A stretch of 33,248 bases of DNA, taken from sequence record SRR31156797_5992; one strand, 5' to 3'. The notes beneath the pieces are model-generated. The model ran no database searches and was not told the origin of the DNA. It saw only the letters and a list, made by a program, of their open reading frames with translations. This document shows positions 4,726 through 23,761 of the stretch, in pieces. The number at the start of each line of letters is the position of its first letter. Position 1 is the first letter of the stretch. The position numbers and the translations under genes are program-made.

Positions 4726-5535
4726 TTAAAATGTATGTTTATCTTCTGGGAATGTGCCAGCTTTAACATCTTTGATATACTCTTTAGCGGCAGCACCGAT
4801 AATCGCTTTAACGTCTGAATACTGCTTAACAAACTTAGGCACAAAATCATCAAACAGACCGAAAACATCGTGGAATACAAGTATCTGACCGTCACACCCA
4901 GCACCTGCGCCTATTCCTATTGTCGGGATATCTATAGATTTCGATACAGTTTCAGCGACATCAGCGACAACACCCTCTAAAACTATAGAAAATGCACCAG
5001 CCTCTTCCAAAGCTTTGGCATCTTCAACAAGTGATTCGTGACCGTTGCGCCCCTGAATCTTATATCCGCCCATAATATTTACCATCTGGGGCATGAGTCC
5101 AATGTGTCCCATGACCACAATCCCAGCCTCTGTTAATTTTCTAACAAGCTCTGCTCTGTTTTTTCCACCCTCAATTTTCACAGCATCAAACCCTGTCTCT
5201 TTAACAAGCCTTATGCAATTCTCAAGTGCCTGTTCATCTGAAACATGATAAGTACCGAACGGCATATCAGCTACAAGATAAGCCCTTGATGCGCCTTTTC
5301 TTACGGATTTACAATGATATATGACCTCATCAAGAGTCACAGGAATTGTACTTCCATAGCCGTTCATGACCATCCCGAGGCTATCACCAACGAGAATGAG
5401 ATCCATTCCGGCCTTATCCAGCATCATAGCAGACGTATAATCGTAAGCGGTAAGGCATGTAACCTTCTCACCTTCGGACTTCATCTTACTGAAAGTATTG
5501 ACATTTATCTTTTTGAGTTCTGAGAATTTGCTCAT
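4726..5535 (-). CDS. panB: 3-methyl-2-oxobutanoate hydroxymethyltransferase
   Basis: LTAYD, ILVGDSLGM, VKIEGG, MGHIGLMPQ, IGIGAGAGCDGQILV. Confidence 0.97.
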   Translation of the reverse strand: MSKFSELKKINVNTFSKMKSEGEKVTCLTAYDYTSAMMLDKAGMDLILVGDSLGMVMNGYGSTIPVTLDEVIYHCKSVRKGASRAYLVADMPFGTYHVSDEQALENCIRLVKETGFDAVKIEGGKNRAELVRKLTEAGIVVMGHIGLMPQMVNIMGGYKIQGRNGHESLVEDAKALEEAGAFSIVLEGVVADVAETVSKSIDIPTIGIGAGAGCDGQILVFHDVFGLFDDFVPKFVKQYSDVKAIIGAAAKEYIKDVKAGTFPEDKHTF

Positions 5536-5605
5536 TATATACTCCTACGCAAGGATAGCGGGGACGTACATCGAGCACGGTTGAAAGGAGATATTCGCTT
5601 TTAAC

Positions 5606-5633
5606 GTGTCTCGGTCCTTCCGGATCCAAGCAC
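5606..5633 (-). ncRNA. pan RNA motif (cis-regulatory hairpin with two bulged adenosines)
   Basis: GUGCUUGG[A]UCC-GGAA-GGACCGAG[A]CAC, about 70 nt upstream of panB. Matches the described pan motif architecture and gene context. Confidence 0.8.
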
Positions 5634-5637
5634 AGAT

Positions 5638-5666
5638 AAGTTAGTACATTATCTTTTATGAGTCAA
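5638..5666 (-). promoter_or_regulatory. Putative sigma70 promoter of panBCD
   Basis: TTGACT-17 bp-TAACTT immediately upstream of the pan hairpin. Confidence 0.55.
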
Positions 5667-5668
5667 GA

Positions 5669-6205
5669 TTAAAAACTAGGAGGTGTCCCTACCCAGAATG
5701 CAACAGCTGGTTTATCAGTTCTGTTTCTTATCTTGTGAGGCAGGTTAGAGCTGAAATAGATACATTCTCCGGTGCGCAGATAGTGTTCCTCATTTCCGAT
5801 AACAACACAGATCTCACCTTCGATAACATACCCTACTTCCTCACCGGAATGCTGATAGAATTCAGTTCCAGTTTCACCGTAAGGATCAAGCTCTATAAGG
5901 ATAGGCTCCATTTTGCGGTTAACAAGTTTTGAAGCTAAAAATGACATTGTGATACTTTTATTTTTAAATACCTTATAATCTGTCTGATTGAATATATTGA
6001 CTATATTTCTTTCATCTTCAAAGAGTTCGCTGATCGTTGTTCCAAGTGCATAACAAATTTTCTTAAGAGATGCGATGGATGGAGAATTCTTTCCATTTTC
6101 GATCTGACTAATAAAACTCTTAGTAAACCCAGTCTTTTGTGAGATATCCTCTAGCGTCATACCAAGCTTTTTCCTAGTCTCTCTAAGTTTAATTCCGTAA
6201 GACAT
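5669..6205 (-). CDS. XRE-family HTH transcriptional regulator with C-terminal cupin (PuuR/SutR-like)
   Basis: HTH LRETRKKLGMTLEDISQKTGFTKSFISQIENGKNSPSI and cupin HSGEEVGYVIEG...G.CIYFSSNLPH. Confidence 0.92.
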   Translation of the reverse strand: MSYGIKLRETRKKLGMTLEDISQKTGFTKSFISQIENGKNSPSIASLKKICYALGTTISELFEDERNIVNIFNQTDYKVFKNKSITMSFLASKLVNRKMEPILIELDPYGETGTEFYQHSGEEVGYVIEGEICVVIGNEEHYLRTGECIYFSSNLPHKIRNRTDKPAVAFWVGTPPSF

Positions 6206-6233
6206 ATTCCACCCCTAGTAATATTTAATTTGA

Positions 6234-6263
6234 AGTATATATTAAACAAATACCGTGTGTCAA
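6234..6263 (-). promoter_or_regulatory. Putative sigma70 promoter of the XRE regulator
   Basis: TTGACA-18 bp-TATACT. Confidence 0.6.
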
Positions 6264-6345
6264 GAAGTATGTTATATTTTATTACACTGTTATAAAAGTG
6301 AATAGATACGGAATTTGTTAATTGTTAATACATTTTATTTATTTA

Positions 6346-6373
6346 TTGACCTTTACCTGTAGTTAGCTATCAT
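6346..6373 (+). promoter_or_regulatory. Putative sigma70 promoter of the gamma-CA gene
   Basis: TTGACC-16 bp-TATCAT. Confidence 0.5.
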
Positions 6374-6409
6374 GAAAATTAGAATTTTCTATCAGAAAGG
6401 AAGTAATAT

Positions 6410-6940
6410 ATGGAAAGTGTAAAAAGAAGATTAAACACTAAACCCACTGTGGGCTCTGGAGTATATATCGCTGATAGTGCAGATATTATCGGAGAAGTCG
6501 AACTTAAAGAAGATAGCAGTGTATGGTTTAATGTTGTGCTCAGAGGCGATGTTGAAAAGATTACAGTTGGTAAATGTTCTAATGTTCAGGATGGAACTGT
6601 TATACATACAACTCTCGATAAGTTTCCAACTGTGATAGGTGATTACGTCACTATCGGGCATAATGCGATGCTCCACGGGTGCACGATAAAAGACAATGTT
6701 TTAATTGGCATAGGTGCAATCATCCTTGATAACTCAGTGGTAGGTGAAAACACCATCGTCGCTGCCGGAACACTTGTACCGCCGGGAAAGGAGTACCCTC
6801 CTAATTCCCTCCTGATGGGAAGCCCTGCAAAGGTCGCTAAAACCCTCTCAGAAGCGGAAATACAGAGCATCAGAGACTATGCTGACAGGTATTATAAGTA
6901 TAAAGAACTTTATATCTCTGAAGGCTGTGAAAAGATTTAA
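6410..6940 (+). CDS. Gamma carbonic anhydrase family protein (YrdA/PaaY-like)
   Basis: Hexapeptide repeats; VLRGD, NVQDGTVIH and TIGHNAMLHGC supply three His Zn ligands. Confidence 0.92.
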   Translation: MESVKRRLNTKPTVGSGVYIADSADIIGEVELKEDSSVWFNVVLRGDVEKITVGKCSNVQDGTVIHTTLDKFPTVIGDYVTIGHNAMLHGCTIKDNVLIGIGAIILDNSVVGENTIVAAGTLVPPGKEYPPNSLLMGSPAKVAKTLSEAEIQSIRDYADRYYKYKELYISEGCEKI

Positions 6941-6941
6941 A

Positions 6942-8465
6942 TCATAGATTTATAACGCTCGTGAAATTCACTTTATCTATAAGAGATTGATCGTGTGACA
7001 CCAGTATTAGTGCGCCCTTATAGCTTTGCAGAGATTCTTCGAGTATATTTACACTATCTATATCAAGGTTATTAGTCGGTTCATCTAAAATAAGAAGCTC
7101 AAGATTAGGATTAGCTAATACGCAGGCGAGTGTTGCTTTTAATAATTCTCCACCACTAATGGTGGAAACGAGTTTTAGTACATTCTCATTACGAAATAGG
7201 ACTCTCGCTAAGCTGTCGTATGCCTTGTTTATACTGTCATCTGGATTGTAATCACAGTAATTATCTAATATTGATTTTGAACCATCGAGAAGCTCAAGCT
7301 TTTGGTCTAAATAAACTGGTTTAGTATTAAGAACGGCACCCCCCCTCAAGGGTGAATACTCTCCGGTAATTAATTTGAGCAGTGTTGTTTTACCACTTCC
7401 GTTATCACCATTAATAATCAACCTTTCGCCATATCTTATATCAATATTAATCCTTTCAAAGACGACCCCTCTCCCGTATGAAAAGCACATATCACTACCA
7501 CTGAAAAGGATTTTTGATTGATTCGTGCTATTTGCAGAAAGATTTATTTTGATAGACTTTCTATCTTCAATTTTATTTTTTAACTCTTTCAGGCGATCAT
7601 TAACTTCAGAATGAATTTTATCTGAAGTCTTGCTTTTCTTACCAGCACTACTCTCTGCCTGCATCCTCTTCTGACCTGCTCCAGCTCTGGTATATTTATT
7701 ACGATTTATATTTTTGAGTCCAATACGCTTCTTCTTCGCAGCATTCTCAGATAACTTTTGCTGTTTCTTAATGATTAGTTTCTCTTCGTTTTCAAGGGAC
7801 GTAAGTTGATTATTTAGTCTGGCATTGTATGCTCTCTTTTCTGAAACATAGTAGCCGTAGCCACCTGAATACATCTGTAAACCTTTTTCAGTAAGCTCAT
7901 ATATTATCTCTATTTTATTGAGAAGTTCACGATCGTGAGAGATTATAAAAAGTCCTTTATCAGTAGCCCTAACCCACTCATAAAAATAGTTTTTAGATGA
8001 GCGATCAAGGTTATTTGTAGGTTCGTCAAAAAAAATAATATCTGAATCAGATATAAAAGTTTTAACTAGCAGAATTTTTGTAATTTCTCCACCGCTGAAA
8101 CTCCGTATATCTCTATCAAATTCAACATCATTAAGTCCAAATCTACTAAGCTCTTTTCTCGCTTCAGACTCAAGCTTCCAGTAATCATTTGTATAACCAG
8201 TATCGTAAATAACATCAGCTAACGAGCCAATTAAATCACCTGTCTTTTGAGGTAAATAGCTGATTTTTGCATTACTTTTGACAACACCTGCTGATGGATT
8301 GGCCATATTTAGGAGAATTTTAAACAGTGTGGATTTACCGATACCATTTTTGCCTATGAGTGCGGTTTTACTTTTATTAGTTATTGTGAAATTAAGGTTA
8401 TTAAATAAGGACTCACCATCAGGGAGACAGAAAGACAGATTATTAGCAGAAATATAATACATCAT
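6942..8465 (-). CDS. ABC-F family ATPase (ribosome-protection-like)
   Basis: Two NBDs (GKNGIGKST/FSGGE/DEPTNNLD and GDNGSGKTT/ISGGE/DEPTNNLD), a long basic linker, no TM segments. Confidence 0.88.
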   Translation of the reverse strand: MMYYISANNLSFCLPDGESLFNNLNFTITNKSKTALIGKNGIGKSTLFKILLNMANPSAGVVKSNAKISYLPQKTGDLIGSLADVIYDTGYTNDYWKLESEARKELSRFGLNDVEFDRDIRSFSGGEITKILLVKTFISDSDIIFFDEPTNNLDRSSKNYFYEWVRATDKGLFIISHDRELLNKIEIIYELTEKGLQMYSGGYGYYVSEKRAYNARLNNQLTSLENEEKLIIKKQQKLSENAAKKKRIGLKNINRNKYTRAGAGQKRMQAESSAGKKSKTSDKIHSEVNDRLKELKNKIEDRKSIKINLSANSTNQSKILFSGSDMCFSYGRGVVFERINIDIRYGERLIINGDNGSGKTTLLKLITGEYSPLRGGAVLNTKPVYLDQKLELLDGSKSILDNYCDYNPDDSINKAYDSLARVLFRNENVLKLVSTISGGELLKATLACVLANPNLELLILDEPTNNLDIDSVNILEESLQSYKGALILVSHDQSLIDKVNFTSVINL

Positions 8466-8549
8466 GATACAACTCCGTTACATAAATTATTTGTTTAGGT
8501 ACAAATTAATATTTATCTAACTATGTTGTTCATTTTATAAACTGCCTCC
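8464..8549 (-). promoter_or_regulatory. Putative translational attenuator of the ABC-F gene
   Basis: A hairpin at 8464-8533 pairs the uORF with the ABC-F SD and AUG. The uORF has its own SD GGAGG at 8545-8549. Confidence 0.7.
8513..8533 (-). CDS. Putative leader peptide MNNIVR
   Basis: ATG AAC AAC ATA GTT AGA TAA, 11 nt after GGAGG. Forms the 5' arm of the SD-sequestering stem. Confidence 0.6.
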   Translation of the reverse strand: MNNIVR

Positions 8550-8568
8550 GAAATTTGATCTATGCCTG

Positions 8569-8597
8569 AATATATGACACAGAAAAGCTAATTACAA
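8569..8597 (-). promoter_or_regulatory. Putative sigma70 promoter of the uORF/ABC-F unit
   Basis: TTGTAA-17 bp-TATATT. Confidence 0.5.
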
Positions 8598-8605
8598 GTT
8601 AAAAC

Positions 8606-8636
8606 AAAAAAGGCGACCCATTTCTGAATCGCCTTT
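8606..8636 (-). terminator. Intrinsic terminator of the LysM lipoprotein gene
   Basis: AAAGGCGATTCA-GAAA-TGGGTCGCCTTTTTT on the minus strand. Confidence 0.88.
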
Positions 8637-8657
8637 GTTATTTAAATTAGAGGAATC

Positions 8658-9503
8658 TTACTTCTTATCAAAGAGTGACCAAGGGCCTCTGTTTCTTGCG
8701 AAATGATCAGCCTTAGCTTTCTCAGCATCTTCGAAGTATTTGCGGATCTTAAAGATCTGACCAGGGAAAATGAGGTCAGGGTCTTTGATCTGCTCTTTGT
8801 TAGCCCAGTAAATGAGTGGCCACATGAATGGGTTCATGAACTTGGACTTAGAGATGTTCCAAAGGTTATCACCTTTAGCAACTTCATAGTTTTCAGTCTG
8901 AGCTTTCATCATCTGAGTTCTAAGCTTAGCTTTACGTGCAGCCTCTGCTTTCTTAGCAGCAGCCTTACCTTCGATGATCTCTTTCTGAATCATAGCGTTG
9001 TCAACTTCAACCTGCTCAAGAACAGCCATAGCTTTTTCGCCCTCACACTCATCAATGAGTGCCTGAGCCTTAGCTATCTTAGCCTGAGCTGCCTGATATG
9101 AAGCGGAATACATGCTTCCGTCTGCGTTAGCAGCAACGTCCATCTTCTTCTTGTAAGCATCAAGCTCAGCCTGTGCTTTATCATTTATCTTAGAGCGCTC
9201 TGCAGCGATCTCTTTAGCCTTCTCAAAAGAAGCTATAGCTTGAAGGAGTGACTCTTTTGCGTCATCGTAAAGAGTTTTATCACCACTTTTTTCAGCTTCA
9301 GCCATCTTAGCTTCAGCAGCAGCAACAGCAGCTTTTGCTTTACCGTATTCTTCTGTAGCGCACTTTTCAGCACCGCTCTCCTGAGCAGCTTTCATTGCGG
9401 CTCTAGCGTTGTCCATCTCTTGTACTGGCGGTTTAGAACATCCAGTTACAACGAGAGCAGCTATAAGAGCAGCAAACATAACGAGTTTGGAAATTCTGGT
9501 CAT
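8658..9503 (-). CDS. Lipoprotein with Ala/Lys-rich helical region (DUF4398-like) and C-terminal LysM domain
   Basis: Signal peptide with lipobox VTG-C; LysM YEVAKGDNLWNIS...WPLIYWANKEQIKDPDLIFPGQ. Start ATG at 9503 after GGAGG. Confidence 0.85.
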   Translation of the reverse strand: MTRISKLVMFAALIAALVVTGCSKPPVQEMDNARAAMKAAQESGAEKCATEEYGKAKAAVAAAEAKMAEAEKSGDKTLYDDAKESLLQAIASFEKAKEIAAERSKINDKAQAELDAYKKKMDVAANADGSMYSASYQAAQAKIAKAQALIDECEGEKAMAVLEQVEVDNAMIQKEIIEGKAAAKKAEAARKAKLRTQMMKAQTENYEVAKGDNLWNISKSKFMNPFMWPLIYWANKEQIKDPDLIFPGQIFKIRKYFEDAEKAKADHFARNRGPWSLFDKK

Positions 9504-9542
9504 TAGAGTCCTCCATTCCATTATTCTAAGTATTAATATCCA

Positions 9543-9571
9543 AATTTAACATAGCTTTTTCTATATGTCAA
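9543..9571 (-). promoter_or_regulatory. Putative sigma70 promoter of the LysM gene
   Basis: TTGACA-17 bp-TAAATT with extended TG. Confidence 0.6.
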
Positions 9572-9590
9572 ACTCGAAAGTTGTCAAATA

Positions 9591-11381
9591 TCAGTCATTT
9601 TCGACGACTTCGAATTTCATATACAGTTCTTTTAACTGCTTCTCATCGATCTTATTTGGAGCGTCGCTCATCATATCTGTCGCCTTCTGTGTTTTAGGGA
9701 AAGCGATTACATCTCTGATCGATTCTGAATCAGTTAAAATTGTCGATATTCTATCCACACCAAACGCTATACCGCCATGAGGTGGAGTTCCGTACTTAAG
9801 TGCCTCTATGAAGAAGCCAAATTTGTACTCTCTGTCCTCTGGTGAAAAGCCGAGCGCATTAAACATCTTCTCCTGAACGTCAGAGCGGTGGATCCTTATG
9901 GAACCGCCTCCGATCTCAGAACCGTTAAGTACGAGGTCGTAAGCCTTTGCTCTCATTTTGCCAGGGTCAGTATCAAACAGCGGGATATCCTCATCAAGAG
10001 GAGCTGTGAATGGGTGGTGCATAGCGACATAACGCTTCTCTTCTGCGTCATAGTCAAGAAGTGGGAAGTCGAGTATCCAAACGAATGAGTAGTCGCCCTC
10101 TTTGATAAGACCGAGGTCTTTTCCGAGCTTGAGTCTCACTTTAGACATATAAAGGTTTACAATTTCCTTCTTTCCTGCGCCGAAGAAGATAATATCACCA
10201 GGCTCACCGTCCATAGCCTTAACTATAGTATCGGCTGAATCCCCTAAAAACTTAACTATTGGCGACTGTAAGCCGTCTTCGTTAACTTTTATATATGCGA
10301 GACCGCCCGCACCGAGTGAAACAGCCATCTCAGTGAGTGAGTCAATATCTTTTCTGGAATATTTTGCACCAGCGCCTTTAGCGTTGATAGCTTTAACTAC
10401 GCCGCCCTCAGCTACAACTTCACGGAAAACTTTGAATCCGCAGTCAGCAACGAGGTCGTTCATAGTTTTAAGGAACATGTCGAATCTTGTATCAGGAGCG
10501 TCGTGACCGTATTTCTCCATTGCGTCATCGAAAGACATTCTAGGGAAGCCTCTCTCAAGCTTGATACCTTTGATCTTGTCGAAGATTTCGATGAACATTC
10601 CTTCAAGGAGTTCCATAAGGTCTTCTCTGTCGATGAATGACATCTCCATATCGAGCTGAGTGAATTCAGGCTGGCGGTCAGCTCTGAGGTCTTCGTCACG
10701 GAAACATTTAACTATCTGGAAGTATTTGTCGTATCCGCCAACCATAAGAAGCTGTTTGAACATCTGTGGTGATTGAGGGAGAGCGTAACACTTACCAGGG
10801 TTAACACGTGAAGGAACGAGATAGTCTCTTGCGCCCTCTGGTGTAGATTTTGTAAGGAAAGGAGTCTCGATATCGAGGAAATCACGAGCGTAAAGATACT
10901 CTCTCATAGTGCGCACGATGTTGTGGCGTGTGATGAGGTTGCTCTGGATCTGCTTTCTTCTAAGGTCGAGATATCTGTATTTAAGCCTTGTCTCTTCATT
11001 AGCGTTAGTGTGTTCGTCTATCATAAAAGGAGGAGTCTTAGAAGCGTTGAGGATTTTGATTTCATCAACATTAACTTCGATCTCGCCTGTAGGGAGCTTC
11101 TTATTGATAGTCCCGTCAGGTCTCATCCCAACTTTACCTTTAACAGCGATTACAAATTCATTTCTGATAGAATCAGCGATATCGTGTACTTCTTTATTAT
11201 GTTCAGGGGACATAACAACCTGTGTGAGTCCTTCTCTGTCTCTAAGGTCAACAAATATAACTCCGCCGTGGTCTCTGCGTCTTTGAACCCAGCCCATAAT
11301 GCAGACTTCTTCGTTAAGGTTTGCTGCTGTAAGTCCTACGCAGCTGTGTGATCGTCTCCAATCGCCCATGTGTGAAAGCAA
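9591..11381 (-). CDS. aspS: Aspartate--tRNA ligase, probably non-discriminating (Asp/Asn)
   Basis: [62 protein letters not shown] start 7 nt after GGAGG. Confidence 0.97.
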
Positions 11382-11382
11382 T

Positions 11383-12645
11383 TTAGTTCCTCCTGAGTTT
11401 ATCGGATATGTAGTTTATAATATTGGTTAATTCAATCTCTTCCTGCACGCCTGCTTCCATATCCTTAACAGCGGCAGTCCCTTTATCCATCTCGTCTTCG
11501 CCTAAAACTACGGTAAATCTAGCACCGTTTTTATCAGCCAGCGAAAACTGTTTTTTCATTTTTCTAAAATCATAGTCCATATCAGCGCTAATACCAGCGT
11601 TTCGCATGGAATTTACAAGTTTAACCGCCTCTTTGTCTGATACATCTTTAAATGAGACAATGTAAGCGTCTATTTCGTTCTCTTTTTCTGTATCTTTAAG
11701 CATCGCAAGTGCGACCATACGGTCTATACCGGTTGCGAAACCTATCCCCGGTGTATTCGGACCGCCTAAGAGCTGTATGAGTCCGTCGTAACGTCCCCCT
11801 GCCCCAACGGCTGCCTGTGCACCGAGTTTATCTGTAACCAGCTCGAAGGCTGTACGCACATAATAATCAAGACCGCGAACCATCATCGGGTTCACATTAT
11901 ACGGCATTTCAAGAGCATCAAGGTAGCTTTTAACACCATTAAAGTGCTCTTCGCACTCACCGCAGAGGTGATCTATAGCCACAGGAGCATCTTTTGTTAT
12001 CTCTTTACAGTTAGGGTTCTTACAGTCGAGGATACGCATAGGGTTCTTATCAAGCCTGCGGAGACAGTCTTCGCAAAGCTCACCCTTATTCTCCTCAAAG
12101 AAGCCTATAAGCTTTTCGTTATAAGCAGGTCTGCACTCAGGGCAACCGATAGAATTTATCTCCATAGAGACAAAATCCTCAATGCCGAGGTTAACAGCGA
12201 GCTTATAAAGTATATATATTACATCTGCATCAACAGCAGGACCACTCGATCCGAAAACTTCTATACCTGCCTGAGTAAACTGCCTGAAACGTCCCCTCTG
12301 AGGGCGCTCACGACGAAACATAGGACCTATATAGTAATACTTTGTTGTTGCTGGCGGATTATAAATATTATTTTCAACGTACGCACGGACAATAGACGCT
12401 GTCCCTTCGGGTCTGAGCGCAACATGTGTTCCGTCTCTATCCTCGAAAGCGAACATCTCTTTCTCAACTATGTCAGTGGACGCTCCGATACCTCTATCGA
12501 AAACTTCAACTTTCTCTAAAACTGGGAGGTAAAATTCCTGATAATTGAATGACCTGAAAGTTTCTTTGAAAACTTTTTCGACTTTTTGCCAGTATCTCGA
12601 TTCCAGTCCGTATATATCTCTGAATCCCTTGACCTTTTTATACAC
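11383..12645 (-). CDS. hisS: Histidine--tRNA ligase
   Basis: [38 protein letters not shown]. Probable GTG start at 12645 after GGAGG (ORF track starts at 12669). Confidence 0.96.
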
Positions 12646-23015: not shown

Positions 23016-23354
23016 TTAGAACTTTTTGTTTATCAGGGATGATTTTCCACTCTTAGCACTATATTTCTTTCTGAGATGTTCTCTGCATATATTTCTTCGA
23101 ATATCACCATGAATAGAATCTTTCTCAGACATGAGTTTTGCTTCCAGGTCTCTATTCATTATCTCTACATTTTCAATATCTTCTAAAAGCTCTTCTTTGT
23201 TATCTATAAGAGATAATATCTGAGTAAGCTGTTTAAGGCATGATTGATACGAACTAGCTTTTTTCAGCAGTTCATCACTGGACTTAGTGTCCATAAGTTG
23301 CTTATGTATTTTGGTTAATTCAGCATAAAGCTGTATGAAATCGTTTTTAGACAT
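23016..23354 (-). CDS. Helical protein, possible FliT/FlgN-like flagellar chaperone
   Basis: 112 aa amphipathic helices with C-terminal Y...S.LINKK, located downstream of fliD-fliS. Function is inference. Confidence 0.5.
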   Translation of the reverse strand: MSKNDFIQLYAELTKIHKQLMDTKSSDELLKKASSYQSCLKQLTQILSLIDNKEELLEDIENVEIMNRDLEAKLMSEKDSIHGDIRRNICREHLRKKYSAKSGKSSLINKKF

Positions 23355-23422: not shown

Positions 23423-23761
23423 TTATTCAAATGGATAAAACTGCATTACTGCATCAGGGCTAGCCTTTTTATGTGCATTCATTGCGTTCTCTGTATCGTC
23501 CATGAACTGCTTCTTCAGTTCTTCGATCATGTCAAAAGCTTCTTCTTCTGACTGAAGCGAAGAGTTAGAAGATGCTGCAAGTCTGTTTTCGTTTCTAATA
23601 CCGATAACGTCAGCAATATATTGCTTTTCGGAATCGCCATTTTTTTCAGACTTGGCATTATCCTGAACTTTCTGAGAACCCTCAGATTGTGATTTCTTCC
23701 TGTCAACACTGGAGAACTTGTCTCTTAAGTTGATGACAGCGCTTTCGTTTTTAACTACCAT
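23423..23761 (-). CDS. Hypothetical protein with flagellin C-terminal-like segment
   Basis: Starts 6 nt after the fliS stop. Disordered N-half, then ENRLAA...LKKQ...AMNAH....P..V. Confidence 0.65.
   Translation of the reverse strand: MVVKNESAVINLRDKFSSVDRKKSQSEGSQKVQDNAKSEKNGDSEKQYIADVIGIRNENRLAASSNSSLQSEEEAFDMIEELKKQFMDDTENAMNAHKKASPDAVMQFYPFE

Follow-up and report, generated by a model that had tools for sequence, protein, structure and literature searches.

Can a ribosome held on a reading frame of six codons switch on the translation of a putative ribosome-protection ATPase in an environmental bacterium? The question is raised by a stretch of DNA of 33,248 nucleotides (nt) from sequence record SRR31156797_5992 (hereafter the window, meaning the whole stretch), on the minus strand of which a gene for an ABC-F protein is preceded by a promoter-like site, a GGAGG motif and a short upstream open reading frame (uORF) encoding MNNIVR. 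An earlier note, made from the sequence alone, had proposed that this uORF forms the 5' arm of a hairpin masking the ABC-F start, and that a ribosome arrested on it by an antibiotic opens the stem. Our preferred reading, to which we give a probability of roughly 0.65, is that the leader is a translational attenuator operated by drug-stalled ribosomes, of the kind known from cat, cmlA and ermC, and that it controls an accessory ABC-F gene similar to those of the antibiotic-resistance (ARE) type in a Denitrovibrio. The start of the transcript, translation of the uORF, stalling upon it, the inducing drugs and the resistance function of the protein are all things that we infer.

The promoter-like site, the GGAGG, the MNNIVR frame and the five helices of the hairpin are present on the minus strand where the earlier note had placed them (Table 1), so that a brief leader frame, served by a ribosome-binding site (RBS) of its own, precedes the ABC-F gene. 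The hairpin is built from the helices AUGA/UCAU, ACAAC/GUUGU, GUUA/UAAC, AUAAAU/AUUUAU and AUUUGU/ACAAAU, and at its base the start codons of the uORF and of the ABC-F gene are paired together (AUGA with UCAU). The uORF spans 12 of the 13 pairing partners of the main RBS. Both the Shine-Dalgarno sequence (SD) and the start codon of the ABC-F gene lie in the 3' arm, as had been claimed, but they are not paired throughout: only the final G of the SD is paired, its GGA lying in a 3x3 internal loop opposite AUA, and only the A and U of the ATG (8465-8463) are paired, with a second ATG following at 8462. Upstream, the terminator of the LysM-domain gene (9521-8658, minus strand) marks the limit of the ABC-F transcription unit.

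Table 1. Features of the ABC-F locus and of related leaders; positions refer to the window unless a locus is named.
Feature	Position	Strand	Remarks
Intrinsic terminator of the upstream LysM-domain gene	8636-8609	minus	12 pairs, then a T run
Strain-variable block (promoter, leader, ABC-F)	8624-6905	minus	1720 bases; skipped by the X2 contig
Sigma-70-like promoter	8597-8569	minus	TTGTAA-17-TATATT; 9/12 consensus positions; sole such site in 8300-8800
uORF Shine-Dalgarno sequence	8549-8545	minus	GGAGG; 11 nt 5' of the uORF ATG (8533)
uORF	8533-8513	minus	ATG AAC AAC ATA GTT AGA TAA, MNNIVR, 6 codons; forms hairpin 5' arm
AU-rich hairpin	8533-8464	minus	70 nt; five helices, 25 Watson-Crick pairs, loop ACCUAA; minimum free energy and centroid structure (RNAfold)
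ABC-F Shine-Dalgarno sequence	8476-8473	minus	GGAG; 7 nt before the ATG at 8465; in hairpin 3' arm
ABC-F gene	8465-6942	minus	507 amino acids; two ABC ATPase domains, long two-helix linker, no membrane domain
CUGUCUCC	8430-8423	minus	Within ABC-F frame, codons 12-15; partner of uORF SD GGAGGCAG (8549-8542)
ATG-stop leader, L119	200-298		
ATG-stop leader, L134	2908-3006		
ATG-stop leader, L159	2908-3006		
ATG-stop leader, L150	2171-2269		
ATG-stop leader, L126	2176-2274		

The hairpin was upheld as the favoured fold, being the structure of minimum free energy (MFE) and the centroid structure alike, and the main RBS accordingly sits in a stable predicted stem-loop, with the GGA of its SD in the internal loop. 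A 78-nt model folds at -17.2 kcal/mol (RNAfold; z -4.29), a stability reached by 0 of 200 dinucleotide shuffles, and a 111-nt model folds at -20.7 kcal/mol (z -2.72, 1/200 shuffles). When positions -72 to +6 of 33 gene starts in the window were each compared with 100 dinucleotide shuffles, the ABC-F leader (G+C 23%) had the lowest z of all, -3.78, the runner-up standing at -2.38; the mean probability of being unpaired over -14 to +3 of the ABC-F start is 0.29. The motif GGAGG-N5-12-ATG has four matches in the window where 5.4 would be expected over its two strands (66.5 kb), which amounts to an expectation of about 0.007 per 90-nt leader, and one of the three other matches is the true start of fliD. 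The organism does use such signals, with GGAG, GAGG or AGGA found within 20 nt of 13 of the 33 longest-ORF (open reading frame) starts. The window holds no second copy of the hairpin, and its reading as a repeat element was ruled out on this ground; the exact leader pattern had no match in viral contigs.

A scan of 8300-8800 for terminator-like sites gave only the terminator of the upstream gene (8636-8609) and none in the leader, where the stem contains 4 G-C pairs among 25 and is followed by no T run on its 3' side. The hairpin is therefore not a transcription terminator, and no terminator of the vmlR, vgaA, msrD, lmrC or tiaA type lies between the uORF and the ABC-F start. Since the leader has no terminator-like element, any control that it exerts would be translational.

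We propose the following course of events. The leader of about 100 nt would fold as one long AU-rich hairpin, with the uORF and the first helices in its 5' arm and the ABC-F SD and start in its 3' arm, and while this hairpin is closed the ABC-F gene would be poorly translated. The uORF would meanwhile load ribosomes through its own free GGAGG, and a ribosome held on it would cover the 5' arm, prevent the stem from forming and leave the main RBS open to another ribosome. The likeliest trigger would be a drug of the peptidyl-transferase centre that halts ribosomes at initiation or immediately afterwards, such as a lincosamide, a streptogramin A or a pleuromutilin; we favor initiation-arresting drugs because a ribosome standing at the uORF start codon would already release 8480-8464, with the main SD and AUG, and because MNNIVR presumably lacks the arrest motifs for macrolides and phenicols.

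This course was modeled by constraining the uORF footprint to be unpaired with the AUG, codon 2 or Arg6 in the P site. Each placement removed the lower three helices and left only the apical stem, the structure losing stability, from -23.8 kcal/mol to between about -7 and -8, and the probability that the main AUG is unpaired rising from 0.34 to 0.50-0.78. The masking arm, which the uORF overlaps, is thus freed in the models, and the earlier expectation that a footprint would open the stem held for the stem and the main AUG but not for the main SD, which re-pairs downstream. Folds of the growing transcript leave the uORF SD unpaired (probability 0.87-0.89) up to a 3' end of about 8455; in a 108-nt transcript model its unpaired probability is 0.89. 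In the folds of the growing transcript the uORF AUG is half free when the 3' end stands at 8500 and at 8470, becoming buried only after 8473-8464 has been made. This late burial would give a co-transcriptional window for loading of the sensor ribosome.

In cat and cmlA leaders a short frame enters the RBS-masking stem of a single hairpin, and a drug-stalled ribosome melts the stem. Among ABC-F genes, vmlR, cplR, msrD, lmrC, vgaA and tiaA are induced via short uORFs (PMC10201436, PMC9226507, PMC10314930, PMC12421871), so that the earlier note's appeal to vgaA, vmlR, msrD and lmrC is borne out. These cases establish the kind of element, one in which the arrest of a ribosome by a drug is sensed on a short uORF and a resistance gene is thereby released for expression. 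Individual systems resemble the window leader in different respects. cplR of Clostridioides difficile (ARE1) likewise has, in a 5' hairpin, a uORF of only a few codons (MRI) that is served by a separate SD, as well as a main SD sequestered in a stem, and it is induced by initiation-stalling drugs; SD sequestration and uORF stalling suffice there without the terminator, as a poly-U mutant indicated (Obana et al., 2023, PMC10201436). It differs in having an intrinsic terminator and two separate hairpins, whereas the window leader has one hairpin, no terminator and a six-codon uORF that pairs directly with the main start codon, and the proteins are distant (the ABC-F protein of the window scores 224 bits against the CplR model, whose cut-off is 780). 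vmlR of Bacillus subtilis (ARE2; Takada et al., 2022, PMC9226507) shares a single-stranded SD followed by a stem with a tiny uORF (MIN), and an SD-sequestering hairpin (SL-4) before the ABC-F gene; a 30S toeprint lies at +16 from its uORF AUG, and lincosamides and pleuromutilins induce it (PMC9226507). Its control is mainly transcription attenuation in a 219-nt leader with anti-antiterminator, antiterminator, terminator and NusG pausing, none of which was seen in the window leader.

The ARE5 gene tiaA of Streptomyces coelicolor, with its leader tiaAL (PMC12421871), belongs to the nearest characterized clade (33-34% identity) and also has a uORF-controlled leader, but this leader is 194 nt long, takes terminator and antiterminator forms and encodes the peptide MVGDDDISG. 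TiaA confers resistance to tiamulin (a pleuromutilin) and pristinamycin IIA (a streptogramin A) and is induced by ribosome-mediated attenuation; tiaA and are5sc are both ARE5 (PMC12421871). msrD is controlled by ribosome-mediated transcriptional attenuation (PMC10314930). The attenuators of cat, cmlA and ermC control translation, as is proposed for the window leader, but they are not attached to ABC-F genes (PMC5418344); the genes under their control encode an acetyltransferase, an exporter or a methylase, the leader peptides have arrest motifs specific to the drug, and ermC has four segments forming two alternative hairpins. By analogy, the window element would fit the purely translational, single-hairpin form of this known kind.

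To place the leader among its relatives, we collected ABC-F loci from genome contigs, where 594 of 600 stretches encode relatives, and from metagenome contigs, where 581 of 594 do, taking the best 80 from each; leaders, defined as the 160 nt 5' of the start, came from 152 of the 160 fetched loci. Of these, 75 fall into 16 similarity clusters and 77 are singletons. The largest cluster comprises 24 actinobacterial loci (within L001-L103), which include most of the best genome-contig matches (33-34% identity), and 22 of the 24 have a uORF of the form M..G[DE]DDISG at about -170 to -60 of the ABC-F start, the two misses being variants outside the search pattern. This uORF, found in Streptomyces, Micromonospora, Nonomuraea, Asanoa, Lentzea and Amycolatopsis, encodes the peptide that has been published as tiaAL (PMC12421871). 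Two further groups of conserved leaders were seen within the 160 nt before the start, one in L137, L139, L141 and L149 and the other in 15 Streptomyces loci including L018; one of the two groups shares CATCACTTT...GCTGAGCATCAC...TGTGTTTGTC and the other GTGCGACCTCGG...GAGCCGTCCTC...CGGTGTCTCGA.

Closer to the window leader in design are several distant homologues. In the metagenome locus L100 (36% identity) an SD-led uORF, MRY, pairs with the main AUG (z -2.05, 7/200 shuffles). Two loci from unrelated phyla have the same architecture as the window leader: in Bdellovibrio sp. HCB274 (L045, 2884-2997) an SD-led uORF, MRK, pairs with the main start codon (z -3.72, 1/200 shuffles), as does in Gordonia hankookensis (L053, 2845-2967) a uORF, MSQS, with GAGGAG (z -2.73, 1/200). 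Two others, L012 and L111, were also picked out by the uORF scan described below and have ordinary folds (z 0.01 and -0.76). Five low-G+C metagenome loci (30-33% identical; Table 1) carry a mini-uORF consisting of a start codon and a stop codon (ATGTAA, ATGTAG or ATGTGA), four bases 3' of which stands an anti-RBS, TAATTTCTTTC, that can base-pair with GAAAGAAATTA-TG where the ABC-F gene starts. RNAalifold predicts in these five a 13-pair long-range helix that includes the start codon, with no double compensatory changes, and the leaders look like a start-stop sensor before an ABC-F gene; we found no description of start-stop uORF leaders of ABC-F genes in the literature searched. Distant homologues thus carry uORFs, and predicted hairpins masking the start codon, that are similar in design to those of the window leader.

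A scan of MFE folds for ATG uORFs of up to 12 codons, with heuristic start calls and other gene starts of the same loci as controls, found a short uORF over the partner arm of the RBS in 25 of 152 ABC-F leaders and 14 of 172 controls (Fisher p 0.026), and one that also has an SD-like motif in 10 of 152 leaders and 2 of 172 controls (Fisher p 0.015). From these counts, the design with a uORF on the partner arm appears to be recurrent in the ABC-F family, at the level of predicted folds, the individual leaders not being homologous to that of the window.

What kind of protein would be controlled? Pfam ABC_tran matches the ABC-F protein in two stretches, in keeping with two ATPase domains, and the Walker and signature residues do not vary across alignment A1, whose 35 sequences all match NF000355 with E values of 1e-40 or lower. 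That model ("ribosomal protection-like ABC-F family protein") is also the top NCBIfam match of the protein itself (E 1.1e-107), at 361 bits, just under the cut-off of 380; Vga (245), a YbiT-type model (235), Msr, CplR, Lsa and Sal follow, and then EttA (212) and Uup (208). The named ARE models are all far below their cut-offs (e.g., Vga 245 vs. 725; CplR 224 vs. 780). Sequence matches in the PDB include Sal(B), VmlR2, PoxtA and VgaA-LC, those to Sal(B) (7p48, E 1.8e-47) and VmlR2 (8buu) being full-length, whereas YheS and Uup match in the second ATPase domain only. The description of the protein as a resistance-type ABC-F therefore stands as regards its best family and its full-length matches and falls short as regards the family cut-off.

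In an AlphaFold model made from 35 sequences (predicted local distance difference test, pLDDT, 88.3), the two ATPase domains are joined by helices 202-254 and 260-300, which give the linker the form of a helical hairpin of 99 residues. ARE1-5 linkers are about 30 residues longer than that of EttA (PMC6723617). The linker alone matched no solved ABC-F by sequence and gave only two insignificant coiled-coil matches. In Foldseek the top matches are ribosome-bound ABC-F proteins, confirming the fold, and PoxtA, VmlR2, EttA, Uup and LsaA rank alike, with EttA third and Uup fourth.

The nearest proteins, found in a collection of 5.8 billion, are 40-41% identical and bear labels that include Alphaproteobacteria and a Legionellales metagenome-assembled genome. 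Relatives on genome contigs are at most 36% identical (best 80 of 594), the best named matches among them being actinobacterial loci at 33-34%; on metagenome contigs the best full-length relative is L100 at 36%, and 43-45% is reached for short segments only (best 80 of 581). A quick tree of 62 rows, computed without a housekeeping outgroup or reference ARE rows and excluding L146 as too short, places the ABC-F protein on a long branch as sister to seven uncultured proteins (98 in the SH-like approximate likelihood ratio test, SH-aLRT). This group stands in a polytomy with a Rickettsiales row, a clade of proteobacterial and candidate phyla radiation (CPR) proteins and the actinobacterial TiaA/ARE5 clade, outside of which the protein falls. 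By sequence, the nearest characterized kin are the actinobacterial TiaA/ARE5 proteins. ARE5 has been found both in Actinobacteria and in Proteobacteria, the BAF2 and BAF3 groups, which associate with ARE5, are predicted to be AREs as well, and Deferribacteres are listed only under DAF1 in the available part of that survey (PMC6723617, Murina et al.).

The adjacent aspartyl-tRNA synthetase (AspRS) shares 92% identity with its counterpart in Denitrovibrio acetiphilus DSM 12809 and 98% with a protein on a 947-kb contig, and we take the host, from these sequences, to be a Denitrovibrio (Deferribacterota). The window genes are ordinary chromosomal ones (pan genes, hisS, aspS, metK, ahcY, murJ, fliD, fliS, cheW, lptFG). 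Two adjacent ORFs of 112 amino acids (23016-23354 and 23423-23761, minus strand), without a Pfam match, adjoin fliS/fliD and may encode small flagellar proteins. Over 10425-10858, a short part of aspS, the summed contig depth in run X1 goes from about 18 to 223-2397 and many contigs continue into unlike sequence; this jump reflects a conserved AspRS segment matched by other organisms of the sample and is not a feature of the host genome.

Within this chromosomal setting the ABC-F gene appears as an accessory block. Two sequencing runs contain parts of the window, X1, which is probably its source, and X2, a coral-reef metagenome; no RNA run was among those listed as containing it. Contigs of X1 and X2 were compared over 5000-11500. 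An X2 contig of 59,423 nt (depth 38) is syntenic with 5005-6904 and 8625-11500 at about 87-91% identity, and it skips 6905-8624, having 336 other letters in place. Because the contig is syntenic on both sides and skips the block, promoter, leader and ABC-F gene together constitute one indel relative to a related strain, with edges that are approximate since they are set where similarity ends. The block has a G+C of 0.34 against 0.42 for the window, and the ABC-F ORF has a G+C of 0.348 and a third-position G+C (GC3) of 0.287 against 0.42-0.45 and 0.37-0.45 in its neighbors. Three small, low-depth X2 contigs do lie on the cassette, over 6797-7040, 7253-7535 and 8358-8533, the last of them 176 nt long with 12 differences and ending at the uORF ATG, so that a rarer X2 population carries a related cassette; 7604-8254 is without X2 cover and uninformative. 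No mobile-element genes or flanking repeats were seen around the cassette, and a search of a plasmid collection (blastn, distant setting) gave no match. The cassette is accessory and most likely horizontally acquired, and patchy presence within a genus is a mark of ARE ABC-Fs (PMC6723617, Murina et al.).

How far does this evidence carry an inducible attenuator? A number of points weigh against it. Within the leader, the promoter match is at chance level (1 site against a shuffle mean of 2.2 in the 500-nt region), so that the transcript start which it implies, near 8562, is one that we infer; every one of the 25 stem pairs is Watson-Crick, and the fold therefore carries no strand-specific signal; the gap of 11 nt between the uORF GGAGG and its ATG is long; and in transcripts of at least 163 nt the uORF SD is predicted to be paired (probability unpaired 0.02-0.04). 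Its partner there is CUGUCUCC, in a complementarity with GGAGGCAG that includes one G-U pair; shuffling the first 200 nt of the gene 5000 times produced such a site in 452 cases, for which reason we give the pairing, possibly due to chance, no weight. The main SD, because of the internal loop, is already largely unpaired in the closed state (0.69), and under the footprint it pairs weakly again with downstream codons (probability unpaired 0.08-0.38), so that the modeled thermodynamic switch is clear for the main AUG and not for the main SD. The presumed absence of macrolide and phenicol arrest motifs from MNNIVR makes the drug class a guess, and the enrichment in the uORF scan is modestly significant for a comparison made on MFE folds, heuristic starts and ATG uORFs. 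The hairpin might instead act as a constitutive damper that keeps a costly acquired ABC-F low, the uORF being incidental or setting a basal level. The hairpin alone would account for the fold statistics, AT-rich DNA readily gives short ATG frames, and the long SD gap, the masking of the SD in long-transcript folds and the 14 of 172 control starts with a short uORF over the partner arm all fit such a damper. It would leave unexplained a GGAGG at a workable distance from the ATG, for which the expectation is so low, the greater rarity of SD-led partner-arm uORFs in controls than in ABC-F leaders, and the repetition of the uORF-on-arm design in independent homologues; we consider it unlikely, though it is the alternative that we take most seriously.

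Further points against our preferred reading concern the protein: its NF000355 score just misses the cut-off, the Foldseek comparison of the predicted structure does not separate ARE from housekeeping ABC-Fs, the tree has no housekeeping outgroup and puts the protein on a long branch, and no protein above 41% identity was found in any collection searched, hence no orthologue and no orthologous leader. An ABC-F of an uncharacterized clade, below the ARE model cut-offs and with a fold matching EttA and Uup as well as AREs, could be a housekeeping-type rescue factor whose leader senses pausing of a non-antibiotic origin, either a shortage of Asn-tRNA at the two tandem AAC codons or general translation stress, and regulatory roles of ABC-Fs beyond resistance are described (PMC12421871, PMC11282234). 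Yet a core translation factor would hardly be accessory and foreign in composition, as this gene is, its nearest characterized relatives are resistance proteins with drug-sensing uORFs (PMC12421871), and two Asn codons in a six-codon frame are weak evidence for amino-acid sensing; such a sensor comes next in order, and is improbable as well. Much less probable still is an RNA thermometer, or a target for a small RNA or protein acting in trans, that would unmask the RBS without the uORF. A long AU-rich stem of this sort, at 23% G+C and interrupted by internal loops and mismatches around the SD and AUG, would fit the picture of heat-labile RBS-masking hairpins. An Rfam scan of 7800-9200 gave no family (its six matches, with E values of 10 or less, fell far short of the gathering scores), nothing suggests why an ABC-F should respond to temperature, and the SD-led uORF and the recurrence of uORFs in homologues would go unexplained. 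On balance, a drug-operated translational attenuator remains the reading that we prefer.

Firmicutes and Actinobacteria are the main sources of the known inducible ARE ABC-F genes, most of which are controlled by transcription attenuators. The literature searched (which left out most subscription journals) contained no description of an ABC-F in Denitrovibrio and nothing on uORF-controlled ARE ABC-Fs in Gram-negatives, and for Deferribacter only Murina et al. (PMC6723617) was relevant, in agreement with the earlier view that no such module had been described in this lineage. The kind of mechanism is already known; what is new is the host phylum, the divergent orphan ABC-F, the compact cassette absent from a related strain, and the terminator-free, direct pairing of uORF and start codon. 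More tentatively, the 1.7-kb block of promoter, uORF, hairpin and ABC-F gene might be a self-contained, horizontally moving module of an undescribed ARE subfamily allied to actinobacterial ARE5 and possibly to the BAF2/BAF3 groups, a module which would give Gram-negative environmental bacteria such as Denitrovibrio inducible protection from drugs of the lincosamide, streptogramin A or pleuromutilin type. If that were true, the pairing of a minimal uORF with the start codon would be this radiation's own, purely translational sensor, reduced in some members to an ATG-stop uORF.

No current idea is overturned by the locus. It would add to the known systems a purely translational, single-hairpin version in Deferribacterota, and a divergent clade of ABC-F proteins that moves between genomes as a compact cassette, and the rule that the uORF pairs with the start codon could serve to locate drug-sensing leaders, and with them candidate resistance ABC-Fs, in metagenomes.

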